A stretch of DNA of 52,753 bases from a virus (lineage: Duplodnaviria; Caudoviricetes), in IMG/VR virus record IMGVR_UViG_3300033153_007861, positions 1-52,753 of that record; one strand, 5' to 3'. A model generated the notes under the pieces. That model did no database searches. It was not told where the DNA came from and saw only the letters and a list, made by a program, of their open reading frames with translations. A program made the translations under genes and the position numbers. How positions within the stretch are numbered: the first letter of the stretch is position 1; every line of letters starts with the position of its first letter. This document shows, one piece after another, positions 21,409 to 48,961 of this stretch.

Positions 21409-21437
21409 AATATACTATCATCAATATTAAATGTCAA
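21409..21437 (-). promoter_or_regulatory. Sigma70-type promoter
   Basis: TTGACA-17 bp-TATATT. Confidence 0.7.
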
Positions 21438-21566
21438 GCTTATTAAATAAGTTTTTAAAAATAACCTCTAATACATTGACTACTATTGAATTTCCCGCTT
21501 GCTTGTATAGTTGTGTGCTTGTGTTTGTGATCCTATACCAGCAAATGCTTCAAATACTTTTAGCAT
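21427..21566 (-). pseudogene. dcm: C5 cytosine methyltransferase remnant (only N- and C-termini remain)
   Basis: AAGGAG SD and MLKVFEAFAGIGSQTQA (motif I) joined out of frame to TQLYKQAGNSIVVNVLEVIFKNLF (motif X). Confidence 0.85.
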
Positions 21567-21732
21567 ATTTTTCTCCTTATTGTTTTTTGTTTAAATTTAC
21601 ACTACTCACGGCATTTTATTAATCTTGTATATAAGTTATAGTAGAAATCAATTTGACAGCTACAGCACCCCTAGAATCGCCTAATTTTAGTATATTCGGA
21701 ATGAGCTTTCTTTTCAGTACGATTAATCAGTC

Positions 21733-22391
21733 TTATCTCTTAGAATTTTCAATGTATGTCCAAAGATATAAATCAATATCTATATTTATAAATTTCTTCA
21801 ATCTCCCTATTGTTAGCAAATCAACTAATGAATATTTTACATCAAATCCGTAATCATCATCGCCATACATTGTGCAGTAGTTCTCAATTCAGTATCAATT
21901 CCAACTAATGATAAATTATGTACGAGTTCGTCAATTAGATTCAATACTGTATTATCAATCGATACTGACTCTTTTTCCTCACTTGTAGATACGGTCGATT
22001 GCTTGCAGTCGACTATGTTATGTTTTGATCTATCTTGTGTATTACTAACTGTATTACTAACTGTATTACTATAATACTTGCTTTCAGGGATAGGTAAAAT
22101 AGGGTGTTTTATGATTTTCAAGTACCTCTTACTTATTTCTTGTGAATCGTAAATATGTTCAATTCTTGATGAAACATATCCTTTTTTAACAAGATTATTA
22201 ATAATAACACTAACTCTTTTTTTAGATAAGCATAGAAATGTTGCAAAATGCTTGTTTCCAGCAAAGCATCCTTCTCCGTTATCTAAACTATCTATCTCTA
22301 CATATAGTATTTTCTCCTGTAAAGTTAAATTATTACTCAACCATACTTCTTTTGGAATCCAAACACCTTTAAAATCTCTATGCAAACCCAT
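21733..22391 (-). pseudogene. Phage replication initiator (winged HTH, replisome-organiser type), frameshifted near 21890
   Basis: FKGVWIPKEVWLSNNLTLQEKILYVEIDSLDNGEGCFAGNKHFA HTH; the C-terminal domain IENYCTMYGDDDYGFDVKYSLVDLL lies in another frame (21733..21888). Confidence 0.7.
22038..22071. repeat. 12-bp tandem repeat, about 3 copies, inside rep (iteron-like)
   Basis: TGTATTACTAAC x2 plus TGTATTACTA (SNTV repeats). Confidence 0.8.
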
Positions 22392-22414
22392 TGCATCCTC
22401 CTAATTTTAGTTAT

Positions 22415-22560
22415 AAAAAAAGCCCTTAACCTTGCAAGGAAAGTGAGAATCCCATAATTGCTGACACTGACAATTATAGAAATTTCCTTGCAGAGTTAAA
22501 GACTGTTTTGTGTTTTTTAGTGCAACGCCATTGTATTGTATCAGCTTCTCACGACCGACA
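22415..22560 (-). ncRNA. c4/CI-like antisense RNA/attenuator leader
   Basis: 22-bp outer stem, inner stem, loop UGUCAG and bulge UUCUCAC complementary to upstream GUGAGAA-GCUGAUA; U tract follows. Confidence 0.65.
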
Positions 22561-22565
22561 ATTAC

Positions 22566-22594
22566 AATATAATACTTACCTACTGATAATACAA
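22566..22594 (-). promoter_or_regulatory. Promoter with AGGTAAGTAT spacer element
   Basis: TTGTAT-17 bp-TATATT. Confidence 0.6.
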
Positions 22595-22632
22595 GACAAT
22601 TCACATAATTATGATTGAAAACAATAAAAACC

Positions 22633-22661
22633 TTGATTTACAGGGGCTTATGTGTTATATT
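22633..22661 (+). promoter_or_regulatory. Divergent promoter for the plus-strand arm
   Basis: TTGATT-17 bp-TATATT. Confidence 0.6.
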
Positions 22662-22734
22662 TAAGTATGATTAAATGCAAGTTCTTTTAAATGTATAACA
22701 TAGAAAACAATAATAAATAACAAGGAGAATAATA

Positions 22735-23148
22735 ATGAGAAAAGTATTTTTAGGCGGAACTTGTGCGGAAAGTATCTGGAGAGAAGAGTTAATTGGAAAA
22801 TTAAAGATAGATTACTTTGATCCAGTTGTTGAAGATTGGAATGAGGAAGCACAGGAAAAAGAGATTGAACAGAGAGAAGCCTGCGATTATGTTTTATATA
22901 CGATAACTCCACAAATGAAAGGCGTGTATTCTATTGCGGAAGTTGTGGATGATAGCAATAAGAGACCTGATAAAACTATATTCTGTTTACTTGGTTTTTA
23001 TGATGGTGGTAAGTTTACGGCAAGGGAATTAATGTCCCTGTATGCAGTGTTAAAATTAGTAAGTAGTAATGGCGGAAGAGTGTTTACTGATTTAGATAGT
23101 GTAGCTAATTACTTAAACAAGGAGAATAACAATGTCACCATTAATTAG
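22735..23148 (+). CDS. Nucleoside 2-deoxyribosyltransferase-like protein
   Basis: KVFLGGTC..S.WREELI...YFDPVVEDW...CDYVLY...SIAE pattern. Confidence 0.8.
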   Translation: MRKVFLGGTCAESIWREELIGKLKIDYFDPVVEDWNEEAQEKEIEQREACDYVLYTITPQMKGVYSIAEVVDDSNKRPDKTIFCLLGFYDGGKFTARELMSLYAVLKLVSSNGGRVFTDLDSVANYLNKENNNVTIN

Positions 23149-23716
23149 ATTGCACAGTAAAATATTAAATAATGTATCAGGATTAGTCAAAGAGAACTTA
23201 GGTGTGAAATTACAGACAGGTTGGGAATACGCAATGTTTCCTGACTTAGCATTAGGTTCGCATGGGTATGATGTTAATACAGGTAATGGAAGTATTGTTA
23301 AGGAGATTATGTGTTGTGCAAATCCTATCTATTCAAACATTGTTTTTAATCAATCAAATATGGTTCACTATATTGCCGATGCACTAAGTATTGGTCAGAT
23401 AAGCTCTGATTTTTGGGGATTTAAAGACAATATGATTGATTTTAAAATGGAGTTTCATAAATATCCCAAAGTAGAATTTGCAGATGTGATTAAGTATCAG
23501 GATAGAGAAGGTATTGAGAATTTAGCTGATTTAGAGTATCAAATTAAATATGAAATGAGAGAAGTGTATAAGTTTAACCAAGAACTACTGAATAATAGTG
23601 TATGGAAATACTTATGGTCAAATAAGTTTGAAGTAATGAGATTGAACTTATATCGCAAAGCAGTGATATTAAGCTATATTGGTATATGGTTAAGTGAAAA
23701 AGGAGAATTAGAATGA
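23132..23716 (+). CDS. Hypothetical protein, possibly Zn-dependent phospholipase C/S1-P1 fold
   Basis: N-terminal His, FPD and HYIADA motifs. Confidence 0.35.
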   Translation: MSPLIRLHSKILNNVSGLVKENLGVKLQTGWEYAMFPDLALGSHGYDVNTGNGSIVKEIMCCANPIYSNIVFNQSNMVHYIADALSIGQISSDFWGFKDNMIDFKMEFHKYPKVEFADVIKYQDREGIENLADLEYQIKYEMREVYKFNQELLNNSVWKYLWSNKFEVMRLNLYRKAVILSYIGIWLSEKGELE

Positions 23717-24441
23717 ATGATATAGAATTAATTAAGGGTGATTGCTTAGGTGTTATGGATGAATTAATAGATAAAGGCATTGAAGTAGATGCTATAATAA
23801 CCGATCCACCTTTTGGAATATCAAGAGAAAATAATATCTCTACTATGAAAAATAAATACGGAAAATTAGCATACGGAACAGGAATTGATTTTGGCGAGTG
23901 GGATAAAAATGTTGATTTGTATTCTTGGATCAATAAAGGTGTGAAATTGTTAAATAAAAACGGCTGTATGTTTATATTTAATGATTGGAAGAATCTTGGT
24001 AATATTGCCAAATACGCCGAATCATTAGGGATGGATATAAAAGACTGTTTTCGTTGGGAAAAAACAAACCCAATGCCAAGAAATAGAGACAGGAGATATA
24101 TAACTGACTTTGAAATGGGTGTTTGGTTAGTAAAAAAGAAATCTAAATGGGTGTTTAATAGACAAGATGATAAGTTTCAAAGACCTAAATTTGTGAGCAA
24201 CTCAGTTTCAGGCAAGGAGAAAACAAAACATCCCACTCAAAAACCAATAAACTTAATGGAGCTTTTAATAAAAATACACACAAATGAAAATGATATAATT
24301 TTAGATCCATTTATGGGTTCAGGTACAACAGGTGTTGCTTGTAAGAATTTAAATAGGAAATTTATAGGTATTGAGAAGGATGAAGCATATTTTAATATAG
24401 CAAAAGATAGGATTGTAAATTATAAAGGAGGTTTAAAGTGA
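23713..24441 (+). CDS. DNA methyltransferase (N6-A/N4-C, beta class)
   Basis: GDCL, ITDPPF, HPTQKP and LDPFMGSGTT motifs. Confidence 0.95.
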   Translation: MNDIELIKGDCLGVMDELIDKGIEVDAIITDPPFGISRENNISTMKNKYGKLAYGTGIDFGEWDKNVDLYSWINKGVKLLNKNGCMFIFNDWKNLGNIAKYAESLGMDIKDCFRWEKTNPMPRNRDRRYITDFEMGVWLVKKKSKWVFNRQDDKFQRPKFVSNSVSGKEKTKHPTQKPINLMELLIKIHTNENDIILDPFMGSGTTGVACKNLNRKFIGIEKDEAYFNIAKDRIVNYKGGLK

Positions 24442-25064
24442 GCGAAGTTTTAAAAAATGATGATGGGTTTTTAAATGTAAATAACGAGATATTAATTAGT
24501 AGTAAAGTAGTTGCAGAACAATTAGGTAGAAGACACGATGATGTTGTGAAGTTTTTATTAACTAAAATAAATGACCGAACTAGATCGGATATCTTTTTAG
24601 GTGATTATCAAGACAGCATGAATAGGTGTCAAAAAGAAATACTTTTAACCAAAAGAGGATTTACTTTATATATGTTTAGCATTAATGGACACGATGAGTT
24701 CAAGCTAAAATATATCGATAAGTTCGATAAAATGGAAAGAGCTTTAAGGGATATTCGATATATCAAGTTCAGTAGGAAACAACAGGTTGAGCAAATGAGT
24801 ATACTGCAAGATTTATTACCTGAGGAGTTAAAGAAAGATAAGATTCCGTATATTAAGGCAAATATGGTTTCAAATAAAGCTACATCTAATTACTTTGGAT
24901 TTCCTAAAATGATCAAAAAGGGAGATATGAATATTGATATGTTAGAATTAAGAGATAAGATATTAGATGACTACTTGAAACTATATGATATTGCTGGCAC
25001 TACTGATGGATTGAAAGAAATTATCTACAATAAATATAAACAGTTATCTATAAAGGAGAGTTAG
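24438..25064 (+). CDS. rha: Rha family regulator
   Basis: ISSKVVAEQLGRRHDDV...YQDSMNR...LTKRGF...FKLKYIDKFDKME. Confidence 0.85.
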   Translation: MSEVLKNDDGFLNVNNEILISSKVVAEQLGRRHDDVVKFLLTKINDRTRSDIFLGDYQDSMNRCQKEILLTKRGFTLYMFSINGHDEFKLKYIDKFDKMERALRDIRYIKFSRKQQVEQMSILQDLLPEELKKDKIPYIKANMVSNKATSNYFGFPKMIKKGDMNIDMLELRDKILDDYLKLYDIAGTTDGLKEIIYNKYKQLSIKES

Positions 25065-25877
25065 ATGTTTGAGTTAAAAAACAAAGGTGAAACAAGAGAA
25101 TGTGCCAAATGTAATCACACTTGGTTTAAACAGTATCACTTATGGAATAATGGAGAGGAACAATATATATGTTTTCACTGTGGCACATTAACACCTATTG
25201 ATATGACGGAAACAATAATAAATGTTAGATTTAGAAGGTTACAATATGAAGAGAATGAGCGTGCAACAGTGAATAATCAAGGACTATTATTAGCAAGTAA
25301 GTTTGATTTATATAATACACAAGACAGCACTGGTGAGATATATCAATTAGAATTAAATGGAAATATTATAGGTGAAACTTCACGAGTTAAAACATTAAGA
25401 ATGATGACTAGGATTCTGCCTAAGAAGTGTCAATTAACAATAAGGGTTCAAAGTTATTCAGAATATAATACACTTAAAAATAGAATATATGCTATATTTG
25501 AGGGAGATGCACTTAGAGTTATTACACAAAGCACAAGTAATATTAGGGAGCTGACTGGAATGTCAGATACAACCTTGAATACTTTGAATAAATCAAATAA
25601 AACAACATTTAAATACAAACAATTCAAAATACACAATATGCGATTACATGACACTTACACGGTAAAGTCTAATGAAGAAGAGATATTTAAGTCAAATGTG
25701 CTGAAAGATGTTCAGAGTAGATATTTTCCTGATAAATCAGTAGATACATTAGGCAGAGCAATCAAAAATGAAAGTTTAAATGATACTGAATATACTTTGG
25801 AGGTAAATACTAACATAAGTGAAAGTAATTGTAGTATAATTCGATTAGGACTTATGAGTAAAAAGAGTGATAAGTGA
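25065..25877 (+). CDS. Zn-ribbon-containing hypothetical protein
   Basis: CAKC...CFHC at the N-terminus. Confidence 0.55.
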   Translation: MFELKNKGETRECAKCNHTWFKQYHLWNNGEEQYICFHCGTLTPIDMTETIINVRFRRLQYEENERATVNNQGLLLASKFDLYNTQDSTGEIYQLELNGNIIGETSRVKTLRMMTRILPKKCQLTIRVQSYSEYNTLKNRIYAIFEGDALRVITQSTSNIRELTGMSDTTLNTLNKSNKTTFKYKQFKIHNMRLHDTYTVKSNEEEIFKSNVLKDVQSRYFPDKSVDTLGRAIKNESLNDTEYTLEVNTNISESNCSIIRLGLMSKKSDK

Positions 25878-25980
25878 AGTATGATAAAAGCAATAGGTTT
25901 TAGTGACAAGTCGAGATTTAAATGTAGGGATTATTTTAAATAGCGGCACATCATCTATAATAGAATATATGTGAAAGGAG

Positions 25981-26181
25981 ATGATTATGTTTGAGCAAAA
26001 ACACGGTATGGGTGGATACACAGGATGCAAAAGTTTTAATAGTGATATTGTAAGTTATAGACTTCCTAATGAAATATACGCAACGGAAGAACAAGTGTTA
26101 TTAGAAGAAATTAAGTGGAGGATATTTCTGGAAAACATGGACAACTTAATGAAACAATTAAAAAGTGATTACTTTGAATAA
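25981..26181 (+). CDS. Hypothetical protein
   Basis: AAGGAG SD. Confidence 0.55.
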   Translation: MIMFEQKHGMGGYTGCKSFNSDIVSYRLPNEIYATEEQVLLEEIKWRIFLENMDNLMKQLKSDYFE

Positions 26182-26203
26182 TAAGAAAAAAACAAAAAAG
26201 AAC

Positions 26204-26232
26204 TTGACAACGCAATATTGATGTAGTATATT
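26204..26232 (+). promoter_or_regulatory. Sigma70-type promoter
   Basis: TTGACA-17 bp-TATATT. Confidence 0.75.
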
Positions 26233-26349
26233 AGGGTAGTGGTTAAGCTAAGTTCTTTTAAATGTTATAATTATGGAGGTATTATGTGTCATAGAGTGGA
26301 TTTTAGGGCAAGCAAACAAAGCAGAAAAAATTAATAAATTGGAGGAGAT

Positions 26350-26718
26350 ATGAATTTATATGCAGTAATTTTTATACATCATGCACCAAAAGGTAACGAA
26401 AAAGGAATAAAAGAATATGTTTTGGCTGAAAGTGATGAGCAAATGTATGATTATATTGATAGTAAATACATGAGTTGGGATTGGAGTGATAAAGATGAAG
26501 ACCCAGAAGATTATTATATGGATGATGACGAGTGTCGTACATATAAAGACTATTTAGTTAAAATAAAAGGCGAAATGTATTCGGAACCTGATTTGGATGA
26601 TTTATTTTACGGCAGGACACTTTTTGGGTGGAAGATGATACAACAGGATTATAATGATGATTGTGCAAGTTTAATAGAATTAGGAGTGATAAGCACAATA
26701 AACAAGGAGGAAAAGTGA
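26350..26718 (+). CDS. Acidic hypothetical protein
   Basis: GGAGGAG SD; D/E-rich. Confidence 0.7.
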   Translation: MNLYAVIFIHHAPKGNEKGIKEYVLAESDEQMYDYIDSKYMSWDWSDKDEDPEDYYMDDDECRTYKDYLVKIKGEMYSEPDLDDLFYGRTLFGWKMIQQDYNDDCASLIELGVISTINKEEK

Positions 26719-27431
26719 GTATATTTACAAAGAGAATAGAGGCTAGAGAGCCTGAAACACTAATGATTATAGGAAAACCCAAGTGTGGAAAAACATCCAT
26801 AGTTAGTAAATTACCTAATAGTGTTATAATAGACTATGAGGGTGGAACTAAATACATAAATCATGACCATGTGATAGATGTGGTTAATTCAGATTTCAGT
26901 ATGTGGGGAGAGTTATCTAAAATAAAAGGTCAATATGAGTTTGGGATTATAGATACTGCGACATACATGGAACAATACCTAATGACACAAATAGTTAATA
27001 GTTATAATAGTATCAGGACACCAGATAAACACATTGCTACAATAGGGGATATACCGCATGGTGGAGGATATGGAATATTGAGGCAGAAAACTGCTGCACA
27101 TATAGATTTTTTAAAATCTATCTTTAATAAATTAATAATATTGGGTCACACAAAGAGTAGGGTTATTGATAGTGACGAGATAGCATTAGATTTGGCATTA
27201 ACTGGAAAAAATGTAGACTTAGTTTTATCCGGTATGGATACTATAGCTTATATGCACAGGGATAAGGAGAATGGCGTATTGTCATTTGAAGCAAGTAGCA
27301 AAATTGTAGCTGGTTCACGAGTTAGTGCATTAGATAGGCGTAAAATCATAATATCTATTAAAAAAGAAGATAGTATCGATACTTTCTGGAGTGAAATATA
27401 TCCTGATACTTTAAAACCCAAGGAGAGATAA
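26715..27431 (+). CDS. AAA-family ATPase (Sak4-like recombinase); start moved to GTG 26715
   Basis: GKPKCGKT Walker A, IDYEGG, IIDT, GGGY and ILGH motifs; AGGAGG SD before the GTG. Confidence 0.8.
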   Translation: MSIFTKRIEAREPETLMIIGKPKCGKTSIVSKLPNSVIIDYEGGTKYINHDHVIDVVNSDFSMWGELSKIKGQYEFGIIDTATYMEQYLMTQIVNSYNSIRTPDKHIATIGDIPHGGGYGILRQKTAAHIDFLKSIFNKLIILGHTKSRVIDSDEIALDLALTGKNVDLVLSGMDTIAYMHRDKENGVLSFEASSKIVAGSRVSALDRRKIIISIKKEDSIDTFWSEIYPDTLKPKER

Positions 27432-27433
27432 TT

Positions 27434-28108
27434 ATGGATATTACATTAATTAATTGGACAACAAACGAAATAGATACAGTGTATTCTGCTGCTAAATTAT
27501 GTACTAATAAATTGGATTACTGGGAAAACATTGTAGAATCGATAAAAATAAGTGATAAAATTAAAAAGAAATTGATACAAATAATTGTAGAAAGTGGTCA
27601 CCATTCAGTACTGGAGCATATAAATCTTACATTCGGCATAAGCGGGATAAGTAGAGCAAGTGGTAGGCAATTATTAAGATCAAGGATAGCATCCTTTACA
27701 GAGAAATCTCAAAGGTATGTAGAAATGGATGATATATGCTTCATTAAACCTGAATCTATATCTAGGAATAGTAAAACCAATCTGGCATTTGATAAACTTA
27801 TGGCTGATATTCAGAATATGTATGATGAAATGATCGAGCTAGGAATACCAAAAGAGGATGCTAGGTTTATTCTACCTAATGCAACACCTACTGACATGGT
27901 TATAACTCTTAATTTTAGGGAATTAATGCACATTTGTAGTGGTAGATTGTGTACAAAAGCTCAATGGGAAATACGGGGGGTCGTAGAAGCCATGAAAGAA
28001 GAAGTTGAGAAGTGTCTGGGGAAATTCTGGAGTGATATGTTAGTACCTAAATGTGTGTCACTAGGGAAATGTAATGAAAAAAAGAGTTGTGGATATATAA
28101 ACAAGTAA
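27434..28108 (+). CDS. thyX: FAD-dependent thymidylate synthase
   Basis: GHHSVLEH, ISRA...QLLRSRIASFTEKSQRYV, EDARFILP and AQWEIR motifs. Confidence 0.95.
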   Translation: MDITLINWTTNEIDTVYSAAKLCTNKLDYWENIVESIKISDKIKKKLIQIIVESGHHSVLEHINLTFGISGISRASGRQLLRSRIASFTEKSQRYVEMDDICFIKPESISRNSKTNLAFDKLMADIQNMYDEMIELGIPKEDARFILPNATPTDMVITLNFRELMHICSGRLCTKAQWEIRGVVEAMKEEVEKCLGKFWSDMLVPKCVSLGKCNEKKSCGYINK

Positions 28109-28120
28109 ATGAGATGTGAT

Positions 28121-28285
28121 ATGGGAGTTTTAACAATAGTTTCATTGATACTTATGACATTAAAATTAATGAGTATTACAAGTGTGAGTTGGGTAGTAGT
28201 AATCTTACCTTTTATGGTAGAATTTATAGTCGCATTGGTGGTTTTATTTATTACAGTATACATTGGAATGAAATCTAAGAAATAA
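28121..28285 (+). CDS. Small membrane protein (not in track)
   Basis: MGVLTIVSLILMTLKLMSITSVSWVVVILPF... resembles a common phage LKL...W transmembrane peptide. Confidence 0.65.
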   Translation: MGVLTIVSLILMTLKLMSITSVSWVVVILPFMVEFIVALVVLFITVYIGMKSKK

Positions 28286-28328
28286 TTAACAATAAGGCTT
28301 GCGAAAGTGAGCCTACAAGGAGGTTATA

Positions 28329-28487
28329 ATGAATGAAATGATATTTGTTTACTACGAACCAAGTCCACTTGTATATAAAATGGTATTTTTATTGTCTGCA
28401 TCACCATTCATATATGTAATATTGGCTTTTTTGTGGACTAAAGTTATAAAAAAAATGATTGACAATTATAAATATTGGAAAGACTAA
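28329..28487 (+). CDS. Small membrane protein (not in track)
   Basis: AGGAGG SD; 52 aa with one hydrophobic segment. Confidence 0.6.
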   Translation: MNEMIFVYYEPSPLVYKMVFLLSASPFIYVILAFLWTKVIKKMIDNYKYWKD

Positions 28488-28510
28488 CTCTTAAGTAAAG
28501 GAGACTGAAA

Positions 28511-29167: not shown

Positions 29168-29169
29168 GA

Positions 29170-36237: not shown

Positions 36238-36311
36238 AACATGCCCCCTTTTTTTTAGTAAAAAACCAAGATTTGTTTAAAAAAATAGCTTTTTACATTG
36301 ATTGTTTTTTT

Positions 36312-36679
36312 TCTTGCATCTCATACTTACAATATAACACATTTTTTTCTGTAAGTCAAGGAAAAAATAATTTTTTTTCATTTTTCTTACTTGCTACATC
36401 GTATGATTTGCAAGATTGAAACTGTAGCTCGTAACAGTATTTTATATCTCTCTTGCATCTCATACTTATAATATAGTACATCTTACACTATAAGTCAAGT
36501 AAAAAATAACTTTTTTTTCATTTTTCCAATTTACATTTAAAAGTGTTCTTGTTTCTTACATTTACAAGATAGTATATTTTACAGTGTAAGTCAAGTAAAA
36601 AATAATTTTTTATGATTTGTCATTATAGCAAATTGCATATAATGAACACATGTATAATACATTTACAGATAAAATGCAA
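36312..36679 (-). promoter_or_regulatory. Tandem array of 3-4 promoters built from direct repeats
   Basis: TTGACT-17-TATATT (36331-36359, 36470-36498), TTGACT-17-TATCTT (36566-36594), TTGCAT-17-TATACA (36651-36679); A/T-tract UP-like elements. Confidence 0.8.
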
Positions 36680-36718
36680 GTATTATTTCAAAAAAACACC
36701 CAATACACCCCTCTATAT

Positions 36719-36760
36719 ATAGTCTTCTATAGATAGTCTTCTATAGATAGTCTTCTATAG
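36719..36760. repeat. 14-bp tandem repeat x3
   Basis: ATAGTCTTCTATAG x3 followed by degenerate copies. Confidence 0.9.
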
Positions 36761-36928
36761 ATAATTTCTTATAGATAAATTTATATACATACCCTTCTTT
36801 ATAAAGTGTAAATATTTTATAATTGAGATTTTTTCGCTTTTCGTAGTATAGTCAATGTCACTATGGACTTACTTTTTTACGAAAATGAAAATGAAAAACA
36901 CCTTGCGTAAACAATGTGTTGAGAAAAA

Positions 36929-37633
36929 TTATTTAATATCAAGAGCGTAAGCCTCGAACCACACTTCCTTATGATAAGAATTTACTGCTCCGTAATTTAC
37001 ATCAGGTACCTTTATTGACAACTCGTAATCTACCTCACTTTGCATATCCCTAACAACCTTAGTAAGTTGTCTCCAATCAAACTTCATTCCATGATATATA
37101 ATCTGCATCTTTTTTACAGTAGCATAATCAAGTGATTTGTCAAGTTCAACCTTAAGCTTCTTGTTTTCTTTAGAGAATTTACTTGCTGTCGCCATCGATG
37201 TAGCTTCTCTCCTACTTCCAATTTCTGCCTTAGTCCTCACTGCTTCATTTCTTTCAAGTAATGCCTGCTCTTTCTTTTCAACTTCATCAGCATAGAGCCT
37301 TAGTGCTTCAGGTAATGATTGTGGTAAACTTGCTTTCAGTTTCTTCTCGCATTCAATGAAATACTTTCTCGCTTGTTTACCTTTATTATTTCTTGCGAGC
37401 ATAGATAATTCTTTAGCCATATCTAAAGAAAGTTGGTATTCTTTTGTCTTCCCACCACTTACTAAATTTTTAGTAAACGATTTATAGTCTTGATTTTCAA
37501 TAAAATCAAAGTCTTTAATTGAGTTATTAATCCAATCGTTAAACCTACTTTTAATTTCCAAAAACAAATACAATTCTCTGCCGTCAACTCTTCTTTCATT
37601 CTCAACCACTTCAATCTTAATTAATTCATTCAT
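36929..37633 (-). CDS. AntA/AntB-family antirepressor
   Basis: VDGRELYLFLEIKSRFNDWI...EYQLSLDMAKELSM...ARKYFIECEK; likely start ATG 37633. Confidence 0.9.
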   Translation of the reverse strand: MNELIKIEVVENERRVDGRELYLFLEIKSRFNDWINNSIKDFDFIENQDYKSFTKNLVSGGKTKEYQLSLDMAKELSMLARNNKGKQARKYFIECEKKLKASLPQSLPEALRLYADEVEKKEQALLERNEAVRTKAEIGSRREATSMATASKFSKENKKLKVELDKSLDYATVKKMQIIYHGMKFDWRQLTKVVRDMQSEVDYELSIKVPDVNYGAVNSYHKEVWFEAYALDIK

Positions 37634-37634
37634 C

Positions 37635-37706
37635 TTAAACACACCTTTCATAAGTTAATTGCATAATGCCATCTTTATTTTCAATACCTAAATTCATTAA
37701 TTCCAT
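37635..37706 (-). pseudogene. Rha remnant, 23 aa
   Basis: MELMNLGIENKDG is identical to the start of 48752..48961, then IMQLTYERCV*. Confidence 0.7.
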
Positions 37707-37707
37707 T

Positions 37708-38154
37708 TTAAACTCCTTCATAATAAACCACACAATTCGGTTGTATATCATAAGTCTTTCCATCATATGTTACATTGATAAATTTTCCATAACAATTTCT
37801 CCAAACACGATTAACTTCTACAATTTTACCAATTGGTATTTTTTCATAACGACTATAGTGGACACCTGTTTCACAATAAGCCTCCTTTACAGTATACAAT
37901 AAAGTTCCTTGTGTTACATTGTATGTATCGTCGTTTAAAAACATTAAATTACTATCTTTTTTAACAGATGGTTTCTCAGGTGGTTTCTCAAAAAGAAACG
38001 CATACTCATCTTTTAGAATTGAAACCTTTTTGGATATAGGTTCAGGCACTGACTCTCCTGATTCTACCTTAGTACTTACATCTACTGCATCACCCGTATT
38101 TGTAGCAAGCACTAATATGAGAATTAGTAATACGATTGCAATTAGTACCTCCAT
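37708..38154 (-). CDS. Membrane-anchored hypothetical protein
   Basis: N-terminal hydrophobic helix; AAGGGGTTTAAAATG. Confidence 0.65.
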   Translation of the reverse strand: MEVLIAIVLLILILVLATNTGDAVDVSTKVESGESVPEPISKKVSILKDEYAFLFEKPPEKPSVKKDSNLMFLNDDTYNVTQGTLLYTVKEAYCETGVHYSRYEKIPIGKIVEVNRVWRNCYGKFINVTYDGKTYDIQPNCVVYYEGV

Positions 38155-38155: not shown

Positions 38156-38701
38156 TTAAACCCCTTTGTGTAATTGTGTATATACTGACAATGCCATGCC
38201 TATTGCATCAGCCTCGTCTTCAGTACTCCACTCAATATTCATACTGTCAAGCTCTGCCTGTGTCATCAATTTATTCTTCTTGCCTTTCCATTCATTAACA
38301 CTAATCATATCTACATACAATCCTAATTTGGTGAATAATGTAAAATAAAACATACTCGCATAGTTAACACTTGTAAATGCCCATGCACTCCTGTGAGCCC
38401 TACAGTTCTTCTTATTAGCAAAACCCTCTATCAATACCACCACTGAATTTTCTTCGTGATAATCCAGTATTAGCTCCATTAAATTAGAGAACCTAATGTC
38501 ATCTTGTACTAATTCCCTAAACCTATTTAATACAGGTATTGTCTTCTTTTTCCGAATACTTTGCATTTTAAAAAAACCACTCTCAATTACATTACCTGTA
38601 GTTAAGTCAAATATACACCACCCATTTTTCCTAGTTGAACCATCAATAGTGAGCAGTATGTTTGCCTGCTTAGCCTTATCTATAACTTCCTGTCTAATCA
38701 A
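38156..38701 (-). CDS. RuvC-like Holliday junction resolvase
   Basis: LTIDGST..GWCI, VLIEG, WKG...K and DEADAIGM motifs. Confidence 0.8.
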   Translation of the reverse strand: MIRQEVIDKAKQANILLTIDGSTRKNGWCIFDLTTGNVIESGFFKMQSIRKKKTIPVLNRFRELVQDDIRFSNLMELILDYHEENSVVVLIEGFANKKNCRAHRSAWAFTSVNYASMFYFTLFTKLGLYVDMISVNEWKGKKNKLMTQAELDSMNIEWSTEDEADAIGMALSVYTQLHKGV

Positions 38702-38764
38702 CTATACCTCCTGTTTTTATCGCAAACTATCTATCGTTATTACTATACTCATTTTAAATCTCCT

Positions 38765-41173: not shown

Positions 41174-41206
41174 CTTGCTCCTTTTTTAACATTTAAAAGA
41201 TACCTT

Positions 41207-41235
41207 AATATACTACATTGCCATTTACTTGTCAA
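41207..41235 (-). promoter_or_regulatory. Sigma70-type promoter
   Basis: TTGACA-17 bp-TATATT. Confidence 0.75.
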
Positions 41236-41240
41236 GTAAA

Positions 41241-41624: not shown

Positions 41625-41625
41625 A

Positions 41626-43422
41626 CTACAATTTCCTCCAGGAGTAATCGTTAATTACATATTTCTCATTAAAATTAATCTCCTTGAACCTTCTTGTTGC
41701 CTTATCAAATATCATTTTTACCTCCCCTAGGTCGCCTGCTTCTCTATTTTTCACTATTTCTAAATTCATGTCATGATCACCACCCTTTTTCATCCTGTGA
41801 ACAATCAATACATTATCTGCCAAATTGGTTATATTTCCTGATCCAGCTATTGATTTCTTGGACACTATTTCAGATTTATTTGGATGTGCTACAAGTATAA
41901 TGTGTACCGGGTACTTCTTTACGAAATTAACCATATCAACTATAGCTTCTGTCTCTTGTTTTAACTCGTTAGCTCCGTAATTACTCTTGCCTAATGTTAA
42001 AAAATTATCTATTACAAAGAACTTTACGCCTAATCTACGATACAGATAACTAAATGATTTCAATACAGCCTTGGTCTCCACAGATGATTTAGTACTATCG
42101 TACAAATAAGCATTATCATCGAACCATTTATCGATTTTCTTTACCGCATAATCTTTTGGTATATACTTTATTTTTCCGTATTTATTTCGATACTCAACAA
42201 GATCACTTTGGTTGCAAGCTTGGCTTAGTATCCATGACTTATACTGATTATGTGATAATTCTGCGGAAAACACCCCTGCCTTATATCCACCCTCTACAAT
42301 ATTTAATAGTATTTGACCTAGAAAAGTTGATTTACCCGACCCATTCTCACCTGTTAAGATAGTTAATTCGTTCAATCTAAACCCTTCCAATATGTGCGAT
42401 AACGAATGAAAACCAGTTGGTATTGATTCCAGTTCTCTGTTTACTTTAATACTAGATAAAGATATAGCACTTTCATTACCAACTAATCTATAGGTTTTAA
42501 TGCACTTCAGTACATTGTCAATACCTTCCGCTACCAACAACTCATTAACATCATTATGCTGCTTAGGCACAGTAGATATAGCCATTTTTTCACTACCATA
42601 GCGGATGATAGTGTTTGCAATAAACTCCTCACCAGCTTTGTCATTGTCTGCTATCAATATAATTAATGGTATTTCTTCCAACCAATCAAAACAATTCTCA
42701 ATCCAACTCAAATCACTTGTGCCAGATGGTATTGACACAACATTAGTATATCCACTTTCATATATACTTAAAGCATCTATCTCGCCTTCACAAATGACCA
42801 GTGTCTGATGTTTATCTATATTGTTCATGCCCCACAATATAGGTTTTGAACCTGACACTCTCCAGCTCTTTTTACCATCACCTTTCTTGTAACCAATAGC
42901 TCTGTATTTACCAAAAACCTCTTCTCCATTGTCATCATAATATGGAAAATAAACAGATGGTATGATACCATCCCTGTAGTAATTCACCTCTCCAATATCA
43001 AAGGCATTTAATGTCTCAGTACTAATACCTCTATCTTTAAATTCCCGTACTGCTTGGTCTCCAAGTTCTTTATGTTTGACATTAGGCTTAGTATACTCTT
43101 TAGGCTTAATATACACCCCGTTGTCTTTCACATTATCCGTAATACTTAACCCCATTTCCTCTTTGACTTTATTAAACGCCTCTTTAAATTCAATATTATA
43201 CTTGTCTTCATAAGCTGAAAATATATCCAACTTTTCACCACATGAAAAACATTTCCAGAAATTACCATCTTTATACCACTTGAAACTTGGTGTTTTATCT
43301 TCATGAAACGGACAAGAAGCATCATTCCCTTTATATGCGAAGCTATACAAACTAGCTATTACATCCTTAGCTCTGTCTCCGTATCGCCCTCTTAAATCAT
43401 CAGTTGTTATTTGCATTACCAC
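41626..43422 (-). CDS. Bifunctional DNA primase-helicase (CHC2 Zn finger, TOPRIM, SF4 helicase)
   Basis: CPFHEDKTPSF...CFSCG; CEGEIDALS and DNDKAG; GENGSGKS, FVIDN, LVAHP, IAGSG and KNR motifs. Confidence 0.95.
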   Translation of the reverse strand: MVMQITTDDLRGRYGDRAKDVIASLYSFAYKGNDASCPFHEDKTPSFKWYKDGNFWKCFSCGEKLDIFSAYEDKYNIEFKEAFNKVKEEMGLSITDNVKDNGVYIKPKEYTKPNVKHKELGDQAVREFKDRGISTETLNAFDIGEVNYYRDGIIPSVYFPYYDDNGEEVFGKYRAIGYKKGDGKKSWRVSGSKPILWGMNNIDKHQTLVICEGEIDALSIYESGYTNVVSIPSGTSDLSWIENCFDWLEEIPLIILIADNDKAGEEFIANTIIRYGSEKMAISTVPKQHNDVNELLVAEGIDNVLKCIKTYRLVGNESAISLSSIKVNRELESIPTGFHSLSHILEGFRLNELTILTGENGSGKSTFLGQILLNIVEGGYKAGVFSAELSHNQYKSWILSQACNQSDLVEYRNKYGKIKYIPKDYAVKKIDKWFDDNAYLYDSTKSSVETKAVLKSFSYLYRRLGVKFFVIDNFLTLGKSNYGANELKQETEAIVDMVNFVKKYPVHIILVAHPNKSEIVSKKSIAGSGNITNLADNVLIVHRMKKGGDHDMNLEIVKNREAGDLGEVKMIFDKATRRFKEINFNEKYVINDYSWRKL

Positions 43423-43456
43423 CTCACTTCATACTTGTAATTTACTCCAACTACAT

Positions 43457-44005
43457 CTATGCCTCCATATCTAACTTTGGCTCTTCATAAACCTCTTTTT
43501 CAATATCAGGTTTCGCATTATTATTCACCTTTGGTGTATTCTCTACTGTCTCATCTAAAAACTTCTCCATACCATTTGCCTGTTTAATAAATGCAGTCAG
43601 TTCAAATTTATGTGTATAAAAACATTCGTCATCAATTAATATACCATGATAATTATCCATGGATTCCTTGGCTTGCTCAACAGTATATGTTTTCAATAGC
43701 GTATTAATAGCACTCTTAAGCTTAGGAGATATAACCTTTTTTATCTTAATCCTCTTGCTATTCCAATATTCCACTAAATCTTTAACGACATCCATACTAA
43801 CTGACGGTTTCTTTTTGGGTATCTCCAATACAGCATAATGAGTTATATTCTTAATCAATGCCCATTTAGTCCTGCCAACAACACCATAGGATATATTCCT
43901 AATAATACGAGCTATTTTCCACTCTTTATCCTTGGTAACAACAAGTACTTCTTTTCCTGAATTAATAATCTTATCTTCCTTACCTAGCTTAATCAACTCC
44001 ATCAC
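43457..44005 (-). CDS. Hypothetical protein: DUF551-like N-terminus plus replication-initiator C-terminal-like domain
   Basis: EVLV...ITHYAVLEIP; VEYWNSK...SMDNYHGILIDDECFYTHKFELTAFI. Confidence 0.5.
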   Translation of the reverse strand: MMELIKLGKEDKIINSGKEVLVVTKDKEWKIARIIRNISYGVVGRTKWALIKNITHYAVLEIPKKKPSVSMDVVKDLVEYWNSKRIKIKKVISPKLKSAINTLLKTYTVEQAKESMDNYHGILIDDECFYTHKFELTAFIKQANGMEKFLDETVENTPKVNNNAKPDIEKEVYEEPKLDMEA

Positions 44006-44372
44006 ATTCCTCCAAAGAATAGTTTTTTAAACAATCATTTAAGTAATTCGCCAACTTCTCAACATCATCTTTGTCCCATACAACAAAAACATCTTTATCG
44101 TCATATAAGCCATCTCTACAAAGGCAGTTCAAGTCAGCTTTGAACTCTTGAAAACTGTCTCTTTTTTTCATAGTACCCCATGACCAAGCGTCATAATCCA
44201 TATCAAACTCAGTCAATAAGTCTTGCTCATGCCAATCATAATCCATATCACTCTTATTGCTTTTTTTACAATACAAACCCTTCATTACCTCAGATCCACT
44301 ATAAATATCTACTCTACTGTAAATAATATTTCTCGGTAAATTCAAAAAATCCTTTCTTTTGTATAATCTCAC
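43989..44372 (-). CDS. Hypothetical protein (start moved to GTG 44372)
   Basis: GGAGGAGTT-GTG. Confidence 0.7.
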   Translation of the reverse strand: MRLYKRKDFLNLPRNIIYSRVDIYSGSEVMKGLYCKKSNKSDMDYDWHEQDLLTEFDMDYDAWSWGTMKKRDSFQEFKADLNCLCRDGLYDDKDVFVVWDKDDVEKLANYLNDCLKNYSLEECDGVD

Positions 44373-44388
44373 AACTCCTCCTATATAC

Positions 44389-45196
44389 TTAATATTCACT
44401 TATTTTTTGATATCCACCTATTTCTTGTGATCCACTTATTTTTTGATATCCACCTATTTTTTGATATCCACCTATTTCTTGCCATTCACTTATTTTTTGA
44501 TATCCACCTATTTTTTGATATCCACCTATTTCTTGATATCCACCTATTTCTTGATATCCACCTATTTTTTGATATCCACTTATTTCTTGATATCCACCTA
44601 TTTTTTGATATCCACCTATTTCTTGATATCCACTTATTTCTTGATATTCACTTATTTCTTGATATTCACCTATTTCTTGCCATTCACCTATTTCTTGTGA
44701 CCCACTTATTTCTTGATATTCACTTATTTTTTGATATCCACCTATTTCTTGTGATCCAATAACTATTTGATATTCACCTACTATTTGATATCCACCTATT
44801 TCTTGTGATCCACCTACTATTTGGTATTCACATACTTCTTGCCATCCACCTATTTCTTGTGATCCAATAACTATTTGATATCCACCTACTATTTGATATC
44901 CACCTATTTCTTGTGATCCACCTACTATTTGGTATTCACCTATTTCTTGCCATCCACCTATTTCTTGATATTCACTTATTTTTTGATATTCACCTATTTC
45001 TTGCCATCCACCTATTTCTTGATATCCACCTACTATTTGGTATTCACCTATTTTTTGATATCCACCTATTTCTTGTGATCCACTTATTTCTTGATATCCA
45101 CCTATTTCTTGTGATCCAATAACATAATCAAAATATTTAGTAGTATATGATCCTGAAACATAATCCTTTATATTTTTCATCTATAACTACTTTCAT
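44389..45196 (-). pseudogene. Frameshifted, C-terminally truncated copy of the hexapeptide-repeat gene (~40 repeats)
   Basis: Same RBS and start as 46146, but a 14-nt deletion gives MKVVIDEKYKGLCFRIIYY*; lacks the C-terminal domain. Confidence 0.7.
44392..45120. repeat. 18-bp tandem repeat array 1
   Basis: Consensus GGTGGATATCAAGAAATA on the minus strand. Confidence 0.95.
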
Positions 45197-45204
45197 AACT
45201 CCTC

Positions 45205-46146
45205 CTATATACTTAATATCCATTTTTTATTATCATTCCAAAATTTTAAACCTTTTTTACCATCCATGTCTATTATTTCTTTATCTGTAAATAATTTCCA
45301 TTCTTTTTTTGTATATAATTTACATCCTATTTTTATATGATTATCTAATATGTAAATTACATAAATATTACCAGTTATTCTTTTTATACTTTTTGTACTG
45401 CATTTCATTATACTAATTATTTCACTTACTATTTGTGACCCACCTACTATTTGATATTCACCTATTTCTTGCCATTCACCTATTTCTTGTGACCCACTTA
45501 TTTCTTGATATTCACTTATTTTTTGATATCCACTTACTATTTGATATTCACCTACTATTTGGTATTCACCTATTTTTTGTGATCCAATAATTTCTTGATA
45601 TCCACTTATTTTTTGTGATCCAATAATTTTTTGATATCCACCTATTTCTTGTGATCCAATAACTATTTGATATTCACTTACTATTTGTGACCCACCTATT
45701 TCTTGTGATTCACCTATTTCTTGATATCCACCTATTTCTTGCCATCCACCTATTTCTTGATATTCATTTATTTTTTGATATTCACCTATTTCTTGTGATC
45801 CACTTATTTCTTGATATCCACCTATTTCTTGTGATCCAATAACTATTTGATATTCACTTACTATTTGTGACCCACCTATTTCTTGTGATTCACCTATTTC
45901 TTGATATCCACCTATTTCTTGTGATTCACCTATTTCTTGTGATCCACTTATTTTTTGATATCCACCTATTTCTTGTGATCCACTTATTTTTTGATATCCA
46001 CCTATTTCTTGTGATCCACTTATTTCTTGATATCCACCTATTTCTTGTGATCCAATAACATAATCAAAATATTTAGTAGTATATGATCCTGAAACATATT
46101 CTACTTTTTCTAATCCTTTATATTTTTCATCTATAACTACTTTCAT
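45205..46146 (-). CDS. Hexapeptide-repeat (beta-helix-like) protein with C-terminal IGC domain (DUF5758-like)
   Basis: ~35 copies of [YSW]Q[EKI][IV][GSI][GE]; C-terminus HIKIGCKLYTKKEW..F...EI..MDG...LKFW. Confidence 0.8.
   Translation of the reverse strand: MKVVIDEKYKGLEKVEYVSGSYTTKYFDYVIGSQEIGGYQEISGSQEIGGYQKISGSQEIGGYQKISGSQEIGESQEIGGYQEIGESQEIGGSQIVSEYQIVIGSQEIGGYQEISGSQEIGEYQKINEYQEIGGWQEIGGYQEIGESQEIGGSQIVSEYQIVIGSQEIGGYQKIIGSQKISGYQEIIGSQKIGEYQIVGEYQIVSGYQKISEYQEISGSQEIGEWQEIGEYQIVGGSQIVSEIISIMKCSTKSIKRITGNIYVIYILDNHIKIGCKLYTKKEWKLFTDKEIIDMDGKKGLKFWNDNKKWILSI
45421..46056. repeat. 18-bp tandem repeat array 2
   Basis: Same unit alphabet as array 1. Confidence 0.95.
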
Positions 46147-46154
46147 AACTCCTC

Positions 46155-46289
46155 CTATATACTTAACAAAACACTGTTCACGCCTGTTGAATATCCTAAT
46201 TGGTATCGTAGCCTACCTATGTAAAACATCAAGCAGAACGCTAATATAATCAATAATACGATGTATCTTTTTGCATTATACTCTCTCAT
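46155..46289 (-). CDS. Small membrane protein, 44 aa (not in track)
   Basis: ATGA overlap with the stop at 46286; MREYNAKRYIVLLIILAFCLMFYIG...LLSI*. Confidence 0.6.
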   Translation of the reverse strand: MREYNAKRYIVLLIILAFCLMFYIGRLRYQLGYSTGVNSVLLSI

Positions 46290-46486
46290 TTGATTTCCTT
46301 TAATTTAAGCCAAGCAACTATATCTTTAAGATATAGATAATTACCGCCTCTAATCGATGTTGTTTGTGTTCTAAAGGCTAGTATATGCTGCACAGTTGAT
46401 AATGGTACACCGAAATACTCCGCTACATGTCTTTGTTTTAACCCTGCCTTAGCTAGCATTACATCAAACTCTCTTCTTATTTTCAT
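46286..46486 (-). CDS. Cro/XRE-like HTH protein
   Basis: LAKAGLKQRHVAEYFGVPLSTVQHIL. Confidence 0.75.
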   Translation of the reverse strand: MKIRREFDVMLAKAGLKQRHVAEYFGVPLSTVQHILAFRTQTTSIRGGNYLYLKDIVAWLKLKEIK

Positions 46487-46674
46487 TATTCTTCTCCTTT
46501 CCTATATATCTCATTTAATTCAAGCAATATTAACCCAGTCTGTCTTAATTCAGTTATCAATATCGCATATTCAGTGACATTCATATCGATATTTGCAACC
46601 TTATCTTGCCTATACTTATTTTCATTTTCCAAACGATCAATCACCTTTTTTAGTAATTCTTTAGTTTTCATCAT
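46486..46674 (-). CDS. Hypothetical protein
   Basis: AAGGAG SD. Confidence 0.6.
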   Translation of the reverse strand: MMKTKELLKKVIDRLENENKYRQDKVANIDMNVTEYAILITELRQTGLILLELNEIYRKGEE

Positions 46675-46755
46675 AATACTCCTTGCTTTAATTTTACTTT
46701 TACTTTAAGATTACACTTTTAAAAGAACTTTAGTTTTTTACTACAACCCTTGGTA

Positions 46756-46781
46756 TAAAAAGTGGGCTTTTACACCCACTG
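46756..46781 (-). terminator. Leader terminator
   Basis: AGTGGG-TGTAAAAG-CCCACT-TTTT; same loop as the terminator at 30770. Confidence 0.7.
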
Positions 46782-46822
46782 ACTTCAAGGAGATGAAGAA
46801 TGAAAACTTTAATTTCTTATTT

Positions 46823-46851
46823 AATATAATACATTGATTACTATTTGTCAA
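46823..46851 (-). promoter_or_regulatory. Promoter of the replication arm
   Basis: TTGACA-17 bp-TATATT. Confidence 0.75.
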
Positions 46852-46859
46852 GGATAAAA

Positions 46860-47431
46860 TTAATTTATTTCTAATTGGTATGTTTCGAGCCATACTTCCT
46901 TGTGATATGTGTTTACCTTCCCATAATTAGCATCAAACACCTTATCCATTAATTCAAAATCAAACTCATCCTGCATTTGACGAGCAGTATCCTTAAGTAG
47001 TCTCCAATTGAATTTAATGCCGTGATATTGCAATTGCATTCTCTTTATGCTTGCATAGTCCTTAGATTTATCAAGCTCTATTTTAAGCTTTTTAACTTCT
47101 TTAGATTTTTGTGAAGCTGTGTTCATTGCAGTAGCTGTTTTCTTATCACTTATATAAGATTTGGTTCTAACCGCCTCATCTCTTTGAGTGATAGCTAATT
47201 CTTTTTCCTGCTCTCTAACTATTAATGCTTGCAATGCTTCAATATAAGTTGTTGGTAAATTAGCCTTCAATTTCTTTTCACACTCAATAAAATAATTTCG
47301 TGCTTCCTCACCTTTTTCAGTTCGTGCCATCATAGATAATTTTTTAGCAAAGTCTATTGATAGCTGAAAATCCATAGTCTCATTGCCGTTCGTCTTAATG
47401 ACGAACCCCCTATAATCTTAATTAATTCCAT
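46860..47431 (-). pseudogene. AntA/AntB antirepressor with internal deletion/frameshift
   Basis: RBS and MELIKI at 47431 joined out of frame to DYRGFVIKTNGNETMDFQLSIDFAKKLSM...ARNYFIECEK. Confidence 0.75.
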
Positions 47432-47464
47432 TTTAAACTCCTTTTAATTATTATGATTAATTCC
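47426..47464 (-). repeat. 39-bp inverted repeat, left copy
   Basis: GGAATTAATCATAATAATTAAAAGGAGTTTAAAATGGAA. Confidence 0.9.
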
Positions 47465-47546
47465 AATATAATAAAACAAACTCTATATGTCAATAATTTA
47501 ATTTATCAATTTTATCCTTGACATACAACACCAATAATATTATATT
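47465..47546. promoter_or_regulatory. Back-to-back divergent promoters
   Basis: TTGACA-17-TATATT on the minus strand (47465-47493) and the plus strand (47518-47546). Confidence 0.75.
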
Positions 47547-47552
47547 TACACT

Positions 47553-47900
47553 GTAGATTTTTTCTAATGAATTTATTCAAAGAAAGCTACTCGAATGAAT
47601 CTTATCTGTTTGAAATTACTGTTCGGATTCATCTTAAATAAAGGGGATAGAAGAGTTTAGCATAGCCCCACTGCTGATTGGTGTTAATAACAGGTCGTAA
47701 GCAGGCTAATGAGTGTATATCGCACAATAAACAATACGACATAGGTAGCAATGATATTAAAGCACCCACCTGATTGACAGAGGCTCTATGAAGAATAGAA
47801 TTAGCGGTCAAAGGTAAACACTTTAGGGTATTTTTTTTTAAAATCTTACCCCTAGGATATAGTTTACCTGAAATCAAAAGGATATGAAGAATAGTATTAG
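47553..47900 (+). ncRNA. Candidate structured RNA or long leader
   Basis: ~390-nt stretch without a credible ORF after a promoter, containing about five consecutive stems. Confidence 0.45.
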
Positions 47901-47947
47901 TTATAGTGTATAGTAATAGTAATGTATTTTAATTAAGGAGTTAAGTT

Positions 47948-48346
47948 ATGAAGTTTAAACATTTAGTTATGTTAAAGGAAAATGGTTATTGTCTGGTATA
48001 TAAGAAGTATAGAAAAAGGTTAGTTCGTAGAATATTAAACAATTCATATATGGTGGAGCTTATCCCGTTATTTGAAAATACTAAAAAATGGATTGAAATG
48101 TTTAAACACGATAAATATATTAAGCTTTGTATTCACCCATATATAGGAGACTTAATATACGAGAACATACATAAATATAGTAAAGAACAACAAGAGTATA
48201 TTATTGATGCAATATATAAGTATTCATTCACTACGAGTATATACAATACATCTGCAGTTGCACTAATGAAGCACGGCTACTGTATTCAAGAGTATTTAAA
48301 GTGTAATGTTAAAGCATACAGAGAATATGCGATGGATATTAAATAA
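47948..48346 (+). CDS. Hypothetical protein
   Basis: AAGGAG SD. Confidence 0.65.
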   Translation: MKFKHLVMLKENGYCLVYKKYRKRLVRRILNNSYMVELIPLFENTKKWIEMFKHDKYIKLCIHPYIGDLIYENIHKYSKEQQEYIIDAIYKYSFTTSIYNTSAVALMKHGYCIQEYLKCNVKAYREYAMDIK

Positions 48347-48350
48347 CTCC

Positions 48351-48379
48351 TTGACTTCAAGGTGTGAATTTATTATCTT
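48351..48379 (+). promoter_or_regulatory. Sigma70-type promoter
   Basis: TTGACT-17 bp-TATCTT. Confidence 0.65.
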
Positions 48380-48386
48380 TAGATAA

Positions 48387-48425
48387 GGAATTAATCATAA
48401 TAATCAAAAGGAGTTTAAAATGGAA
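48387..48425 (+). repeat. 39-bp inverted repeat, right copy (1 mismatch)
   Basis: GGAATTAATCATAATAATCAAAAGGAGTTTAAAATGGAA. Confidence 0.9.
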
Positions 48426-48761
48426 CGAAACTTAAGAGAAATTAGTTTTTATGTTAATACAATATGCTCTATACAATTAAGACGAAAATTAAAGGTAGAT
48501 GAAGATGAGATAAGCATATTTGGTATAGTTGTAAATCCTTCTGATTCTATAGAATATATAAACCCAACATTAGCAATAAATACTATTGATGGAAAAGAAT
48601 ATTTGTTTTACTTTAATACTGATGAAGAATTAAACAATGCTTATGAAGATTTTTTAGGAAAAAGTGCAATTTCAAATATAGTCTTAATTTGTGCAACTAC
48701 TACTTGGCAAAATAGTTTTGAAAAAAAGAATATAATTAAAAGGAGTTTAAAATGGAATTAA
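48420..48761 (+). CDS. Hypothetical protein
   Basis: AAGGAG SD. Confidence 0.6.
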   Translation: MERNLREISFYVNTICSIQLRRKLKVDEDEISIFGIVVNPSDSIEYINPTLAINTIDGKEYLFYFNTDEELNNAYEDFLGKSAISNIVLICATTTWQNSFEKKNIIKRSLKWN

Positions 48762-48961
48762 TGAATTTAGGTATTGAAAATAAAGATGGTATGATTTTAG
48801 TGAGTAGTAGGATTGTGGCAGAGAAATTGGAAAAGGAACATAATAAAGTTTTATTAAAAATAAGAGAAGTTTTAACTAAAGCCGAATATGGCTTGAGTGA
48901 ATATAAAGCCACAAGTGGCGACATCTTTTTAAATAAATGTAAAGTAAACAAAGGGGTTTAA
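48752..48961 (+). pseudogene. Truncated Rha family protein
   Basis: VSSRIVAEKLEKEHNKVL..IR...SEYKATSG then ends; lacks the LT..GF/FK..YI core present in 24438..25064. Confidence 0.7.

Follow-up and report, generated by a model that had tools for sequence, protein, structure and literature searches.

Gene remnants and short-repeat junctions among accessory genes of a metagenome-assembled phage genome

Deletions between short direct repeats have long been known from phages T4 (rII) and T7, Bro-N and KilA-N modules are shuffled among phage antirepressors, and defective prophages carry accessory genes broken by deletions in the course of pseudogene decay. In the laboratory, T7 is reported to escape Cas9 through microhomology joining, in non-essential genes only and with flanking repeats of up to 15 base pairs (bp), given as 8-15 bp in the discussion (available part of PMC11294054). 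Single-strand annealing proteins recombine short and diverged sequences (available parts of PMC5499656 and PMC8093625), and single-strand annealing activity is described for Sak4 (available part of PMC5928155). Here, we describe six gene remnants in IMG/VR virus record IMGVR_UViG_3300033153_007861 (Duplodnaviria; Caudoviricetes), a phage record of 52,753 bases (linear class, CheckV completeness 93%, G+C ~31%) that was analyzed whole and is called the window below. The remnants belong to a C5 cytosine DNA methyltransferase gene (dcm), a replication-initiator gene (rep), two Rha-type antirepressor genes (rha), an antA gene, and one copy (gene B) of a hexapeptide-repeat gene. They are probably the product of independent deletions between short repeats, together with the swapping of antirepressor heads, in accessory genes that this mosaic phage can dispense with.

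As in T7 and T4 under Cas9, gene interiors are lost from dispensable genes and, at the three junctions that can be read, one copy of a short repeat is left, but the events in the window are natural, the repeats measure 2-6 nucleotides (nt) as compared with up to 15 bp, and six events lie together in one wild genome (compared with the available part of PMC11294054). As in antirepressor shuffling, one C-terminal domain is found behind three heads and the antA gene of a relative is a mosaic of two window paralogs, whereas the window keeps 5' stubs of the apparently displaced Rha head, twice and with near-identical starts. The likeness to mosaicism brought about by single-strand annealing proteins lies in the presence of an AAA_24 (Sak4-type) gene, which may have had a role in the scars. 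Unlike in decaying defective prophages, the terminase is unbroken, the genome is nearly complete by CheckV, and the remnants appear fresh rather than eroded. No phage pseudogene rate usable as a baseline was found in a search of the published literature. This kind of gene loss is already known; it is unusually well recorded here, and the scar count comes from this genome alone.

Remnants of antA, rep, dcm and a repeat gene

A reading of the window made earlier without database searches (the sequence-only reading) had singled out dcm, rep, two rha loci, antA and a repeat-gene copy as gene remnants, and all six are borne out at the positions given below. The comparisons establish the remnants themselves, their colinearity with intact alleles, and repeats at three junctions. 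For dcm, rep, antA and gene B, colinearity with an intact allele is seen on both sides of the gap; for the two rha stubs it covers the 5' side. A short direct repeat with one copy kept is readable at three junctions, as AAGATT (6 nt), TA (2 nt) and ATAT (4 nt), in agreement with the overlaps of 2-6 nt first proposed. Intact alleles, which the sequence-only reading had advised looking for in close relatives, are present for rep and antA in the closest relative, a 57,008-base contig that also encodes P0271 and whose proteins P0002 and P0151 are used for comparison here.

The window holds two intact antA copies, antA1 (36929..37651, minus strand; probable start ATG 37633) and antA2 (48963..49670, plus strand), each matching the AntA domain (PF08346) over positions 1-68 of 68. 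The third copy is the remnant, on the minus strand. Its 5' part (47354..47444) has a ribosome-binding site (RBS), an ATG at 47431, six original codons, and a frameshifted tail, giving 25 codons in total; the RBS and six codons are identical to the antA2 start at 29 of 31 nt. Its 3' part (46860..47417) comprises 185 codons colinear with the orthologous P0151 (232 amino acids, aa) from residue 51, so that residues 7-50 of P0151 are missing, and only Pfam positions 50-68 of the domain are retained. A 171-aa open reading frame (ORF) runs from ATG 47375. The junction repeat AAGATT is at 47419-47414: its 5' copy corresponds to codons 5-6, as seen in both antA paralogs, and its 3' copy fits Glu-Asp-Tyr of P0151, implying a 136-nt out-of-frame deletion between direct repeats. 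The truncated form is unique among the relatives listed from other contigs, all but 3 of 118 of which are 210-318 aa long.

P0151 is itself a mosaic, being identical to the scar copy at 55 of 64 residues (86%) in the middle of the gene and to antA2 at 56 of 64 at its end, and at the sequence level it documents recombination among antA paralogs. Among the listed relatives, the antA C-terminal domain is found behind AntA, Rha or Bro-N heads. The 39-nt leader that runs from the region of the transcript start to the ATG of the remnant (47426-47464, minus strand) is identical at 38 of 39 nt to 48387-48425 (plus strand). The two copies head two divergent early units, each following a near-consensus promoter-like site, and they form inverted repeats around a 922-nt segment, inversion of which is possible in principle.

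The N-terminal part of rep (21837..22391, minus strand) is a 184-aa ORF with an HTH_36 head (PF13730), colinear with P0002 (257 aa) from residue 1 to ~182, down to 21889, and followed by 17 out-of-frame codons. The C-terminal part (21733..21888, minus strand; stop 21735-21733) lies in another frame, where residues 209-252 of P0002 align at 21888-21757 with 34 of 44 identical (expect value, E, 2e-19); this alignment is supported by a second relative, P0003 (259 aa, E 3e-12). The two-frame alignment with P0002 puts the junction at 21889|21888, confirming the ~21890 of the sequence-only reading, with ~79 nt lost out of frame and a possible end-point overlap of 0-2 nt. Head and C-terminal part are not joined in one reading frame, in replication-initiator PHROG profiles the ORF extends no further than the first half, and all but six of the 119 rep relatives listed exceed 184 aa. 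Identity to P0002 is 77% in the out-of-frame tail and 74% in the in-frame part, and together with the 86% identity of the antA middle to P0151 this upholds the original proposal of clean interior deletions rather than gradual decay by point mutation.

The rep query retrieved 80 loci from IMG/VR, the best at 58% identity and over the head only, and when 23 of the IMG/VR homologs were used in tblastn, no C-terminal remnant was seen downstream of rep; the closer P0002 then revealed the tail. Near 22085, after residue 103 of the rep ORF, 14 residues (42 nt) present in a linker of P0002 and P0003 are absent in frame; either the window's rep has lost another small interior segment there, or P0002 and P0003 have gained one by insertion. 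Elsewhere, 43457-44005 (minus strand), adjoining the primase-helicase gene, matches residues 214-293, the C-terminal part, of another rep homolog (L062; E 3e-8), which places the head and the tail of this type of initiator in two different genes of the phage, 21 kb from each other. In a further relative (L084), positions 1-119 begin with 78 nt whose opposite strand encodes residues 206-231 of P0002 and continue with residues 243-257 forward, both at 100% identity, which looks like a fold-back artefact at the contig end.

The 5' part of dcm (21516..21578, minus strand) has a strong RBS and ATG (21578-21564; ATG at 21566) and codons 1-17 (21566-21516) with a FAGIG motif, in a frame of 27 codons that stops at 21483. 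In 11 records, phage cytosine methyltransferases match the first 14-17 residues at their N-termini with 69-86% identity, each match being individually weak (E 0.09-9) and 10 of the 11 falling under methylase-annotated features. The 3' part (21427..21549, minus strand) consists of 40 codons and a stop in a second frame, with matches to PF00145 (positions 292-323 of 324, E 3.9e-6), to DNA-methyltransferase PHROGs, and to 262 phage records (best 74%, E 4e-6). Six Streptococcus Javan phages are common to the two match lists. The two pieces overlap in different frames, with the junction within 21525-21516 (10-nt ambiguity), and their counterparts in Javan172 are 984 nt apart in a gene of ~1.1 kb; this spacing and the frame overlap indicate that ~1 kb of dcm is gone and the frame broken. 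A C5 cytosine DNA methyltransferase needs a complete catalytic core from its first motif to its last, and dcm does not have one; by its sequence, it is a remnant and not a working methyltransferase. The final codons of dcm coincide in part with a promoter-like site (21409..21437, minus strand; TTGACA, 17 nt, TATATT; 11 of 12 matches), and relative L084 has a similar site before the same downstream genes, with no dcm there. The slot corresponding to the remnant in that relative (L084:215-245) holds only an RBS and a four-codon mini-ORF before the shared promoter.

Gene A (45205..46146, minus strand) encodes 35 six-residue units and a 70-aa C-terminal domain, and its copy, gene B (44389..45196, minus strand; original ATG 45196), encodes ~40 units without that domain. 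Over its 5' 113 nt, gene B is identical to gene A at 113 of 113 positions around a TA-flanked 14-nt gap. This 14-nt deletion, at 45163/45162, shifts the frame, and the array is reopened as an ORF of 263 aa by an ATG at 45180, outside the original frame. At the 3' end the array joins the terminal cassette at ATAT (~44397-44392) and the ~70-aa domain is missing. Three copies of a 23-nt cassette consisting of gene end, RBS and start (46166-46144, 45216-45194 and 44392-44370, minus strand) flank genes A and B and could have mediated their duplication. The ~35-40 copies of the 18-nt unit in genes A and B each encode six residues (such as GGYQEI); the PHROG families matched are of unknown function, and an Atlas search placed the genes nearest to viral hexapeptide-repeat (Hexapep) clusters with a score of 0.92, which is a lead only.

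Rha stubs upstream of the antA genes

Both intact antA genes are preceded by a short rha remnant. Remnant 1 (37635..37718, minus strand) consists of an RBS and a 23-codon ORF (37706-37635) whose stop is 1 nt before the probable antA1 start, and remnant 2 (48740..48961, plus strand) of an RBS and a 69-codon ORF (48752-48961) whose stop abuts the antA2 start. Where the intact Rha paralog of the window (24438..25064, plus strand), used as internal reference, matches the Phage_pRha domain (PF09669) over positions 1-91 of 91, remnant 2 covers positions 1-29 and remnant 1 only 13-14 codons. Residues 2-45 of remnant 2 are 61% identical to an intact 250-aa Rha+ANT protein, encoded at the single locus (L110) that the rha query retrieved from IMG/VR, and remnant 2 is colinear with relatives in the representative library to about residue 58-66. 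The two stubs are, to judge from these alignments, 5' leftovers of a Rha-type antirepressor that has ~250 aa when intact. Retention of a gene end along with the start, proposed for each locus, is seen for dcm, rep and antA; for rha remnant 2 the tail has no significant match to the intact L110 relative (E 3.5) and a retained 3' segment was not found. A tblastn search of remnant 2 against cultured phages gave no match, and a match of the rha query in genome contigs (L111) was discarded as spurious, the protein being rhodanese-like.

The RBS and first 13 codons of the two remnants are identical at 54 of 56 nt, while the adjoining antA genes are 74-86% identical; the chance of such agreement is ~4e-4 at a background of 80% and 0.011 at 86%. 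Given the three head types found on the antA C-terminal domain and the mosaicism of P0151, replacement of the N-terminal head explains the rha stubs as well as deletion does.

How the gene interiors may have been lost

In the proposed course of events, dcm, rep, one antA copy and gene B would each have suffered an independent deletion joined at very short direct repeats (2-6 nt) by illegitimate recombination, either through replication slippage or through resection and annealing after a break. The remainder of rha would have been deleted, or replaced through recombination with an AntA-type module. Conservation is no lower in the retained pieces than in the sequence around them, which points to clean and fairly recent deletions and not to slow decay. 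Many gene junctions of this genome share a cassette of RBS, stop and start, the RBS of the following gene being made up of the final codons of the gene before it; with these cassettes and with a promoter on the dcm end, only interior deletions would spare the neighbors. Starts and ends may thus survive as carriers of signals that neighboring genes need (the promoter over the dcm end, the last codons that serve as the RBS of the next gene), and they may also be what is seen simply as complete deletions leave no trace and the events are recent. Retained operon coupling, suggested earlier as the reason, fits at most the two rha stubs, whose stops abut the antA starts, but in dcm, rep, antA and gene B the deletion is out of frame and the reading frame closes early; with four of the six events out of frame, preserved coupling is not a general reason for keeping starts. 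The enzymology, the selective reasons and the initiating events of the deletions are what we infer from these features.

Several points weigh against this course of events. Every junction comes from one metagenome assembly. The closest relative is known as proteins only, and the AAGATT repeat is deduced from paralog DNA and ortholog protein. The 171-aa antA and 263-aa gene B ORFs are open and could be expressed and useful, in which case these genes are remodelled and not dead. The representative library gave 26 on-family relatives for rha remnant 2, 12 of them with at least 165 aa and 14 with at most 125 aa; proteins made of a short Rha head may genuinely recur, or these library entries may be fragments.

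A different cause for the same deletions, already put forward in the sequence-only reading, is escape from host defence: the deletions would have removed sites cut by CRISPR-Cas or restriction systems, or genes that trigger defences, and the phage nuclease and the Sak4-type protein would have rejoined the ends at microhomologies. The deletions are clean, of short homology and confined to dispensable genes, and the enzymes named in that reading are encoded, as a PD-(D/E)XK nuclease (20084..20842, minus strand) and an AAA_24 (Sak4-type) ATPase (26745..27431, plus strand). The T7 precedent under Cas9 and the annealing activity of Sak4 also speak for it (available parts of PMC11294054 and PMC5928155). 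However, nothing in the sequence separates induced from spontaneous breaks, the overlaps of 2-6 nt are shorter than the 8-15 bp of the Cas9 study (available part of PMC11294054), and gene B, with 14 nt lost, and rep, with its in-frame gap of 42 nt, look like cases of ordinary slippage. The choice of genes carries limited weight as well: remnants do occur in widely shared phage genes, as first noted, but this is partly ascertainment, since 17 of the 20 other accessory ORFs have no PHROG family, so that scars in them would be unrecognizable and recognition is biased. We consider defence escape unlikely as the cause, and it is to the same degree improbable that one wild genome has kept, in its scars, half a dozen recent escapes as a natural record of pressure from host defences, through cleavage or through sensing of accessory products.

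Under functional remodelling, the short ORFs would be kept for coupling or as leader peptides, and antA and gene B would yield truncated but working proteins. It draws on the position of each rha stub stop next to an antA start, on the near-identity of the first 56 nt of the stubs, on ORFs of 171 and 263 aa staying open at ~31% G+C, and on the many short Rha-head proteins in the representative library. Against this, the leaders of dcm, rep, antA and gene B each arise from a frameshift and run for 17-27 codons, ending short of the next start, the truncated antA form has no counterpart among the listed relatives, and the new start codons have no good RBS at the right distance; such remodelling is unlikely. 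An assembly or population artefact, in which the contig joins variants or collapses repeats and some deletions exist in no single phage, is very unlikely: the record is metagenome-assembled, the 18-nt repeat arrays of genes A and B assemble poorly and the L084 contig start resembles a fold-back, but five junctions are in unique sequence, the six loci are independent, and a 79-nt, a 136-nt or a frame-changing 1-kb deletion is beyond an assembler's making unless reads carry it.

If the junctions hold, independent short-repeat deletion and head swapping make this genome a compact natural example of phages shedding and remodelling accessory genes, with intact paralogs nearby and a relative that has intact alleles, in which deletion size, junction homology and the constraint imposed by neighboring signals are directly measurable. 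It would serve as a test bed for the question whether host defences drive such gene loss, and reveals no new mechanism.

Genome layout and other features

Minus-strand genes fill 1-21 kb and include the large terminase and three tRNA genes (Gln, Cys and Ser; 13935-14197, minus strand, downstream of the terminase); Rfam matched the three tRNAs and nothing else. Plus-strand genes at 22.7-32.8 kb include an intact N6/N4 methylase, the intact Rha protein and the AAA_24 (Sak4-type) ATPase, and are followed by a minus-strand early block at 33-47.4 kb, which includes the primase-helicase, and by a short plus-strand unit at 47.9-49.7 kb. The terminase matches its PHROG over the full length and the other genes scanned are also unbroken. 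No integrase was seen among the few proteins scanned.

Megablast of 21000-45900 against cultured phages found no match and hence no cultured phage that is close at the DNA level. In IMG/VR, the primase-helicase query retrieved 15 loci, all with at most 31% identity, and the nuclease query a single locus (L084, 84% identity). Nine loci were retrieved from metagenome contigs, the best at 39% and over a short stretch only, and the terminase query found no kin in genome contigs.

Two weaker scar candidates had also been proposed. The first, a mini-ORF of 11 codons with a strong RBS (38717..38752, minus strand), lies upstream of a RuvC-like gene (38156-38701) and was rejected as a scar of it: the N-terminus of the RuvC-like gene is shared by the two relatives retrieved (180 aa with 84% identity and 178 aa with 75%), so the gene is whole. 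The second, a mini-ORF of 16 codons (26284..26334, plus strand), is downstream of a promoter-like site, and its scar status has no homology support.

Between the divergent promoters, 47560-47900 contains no convincing gene and has no Rfam match; judged by eye only, its G+C content is higher than that of the sequence around it. The intergenic region 36277-36767 contains 109-nt direct repeats in three copies and a 14-nt tandem unit in four, which could be origin iterons or a regulatory site. Three 66-nt tandem repeats (52101-52298; 68-100% identical) lie in the last minus-strand gene, which runs past the end of the record.

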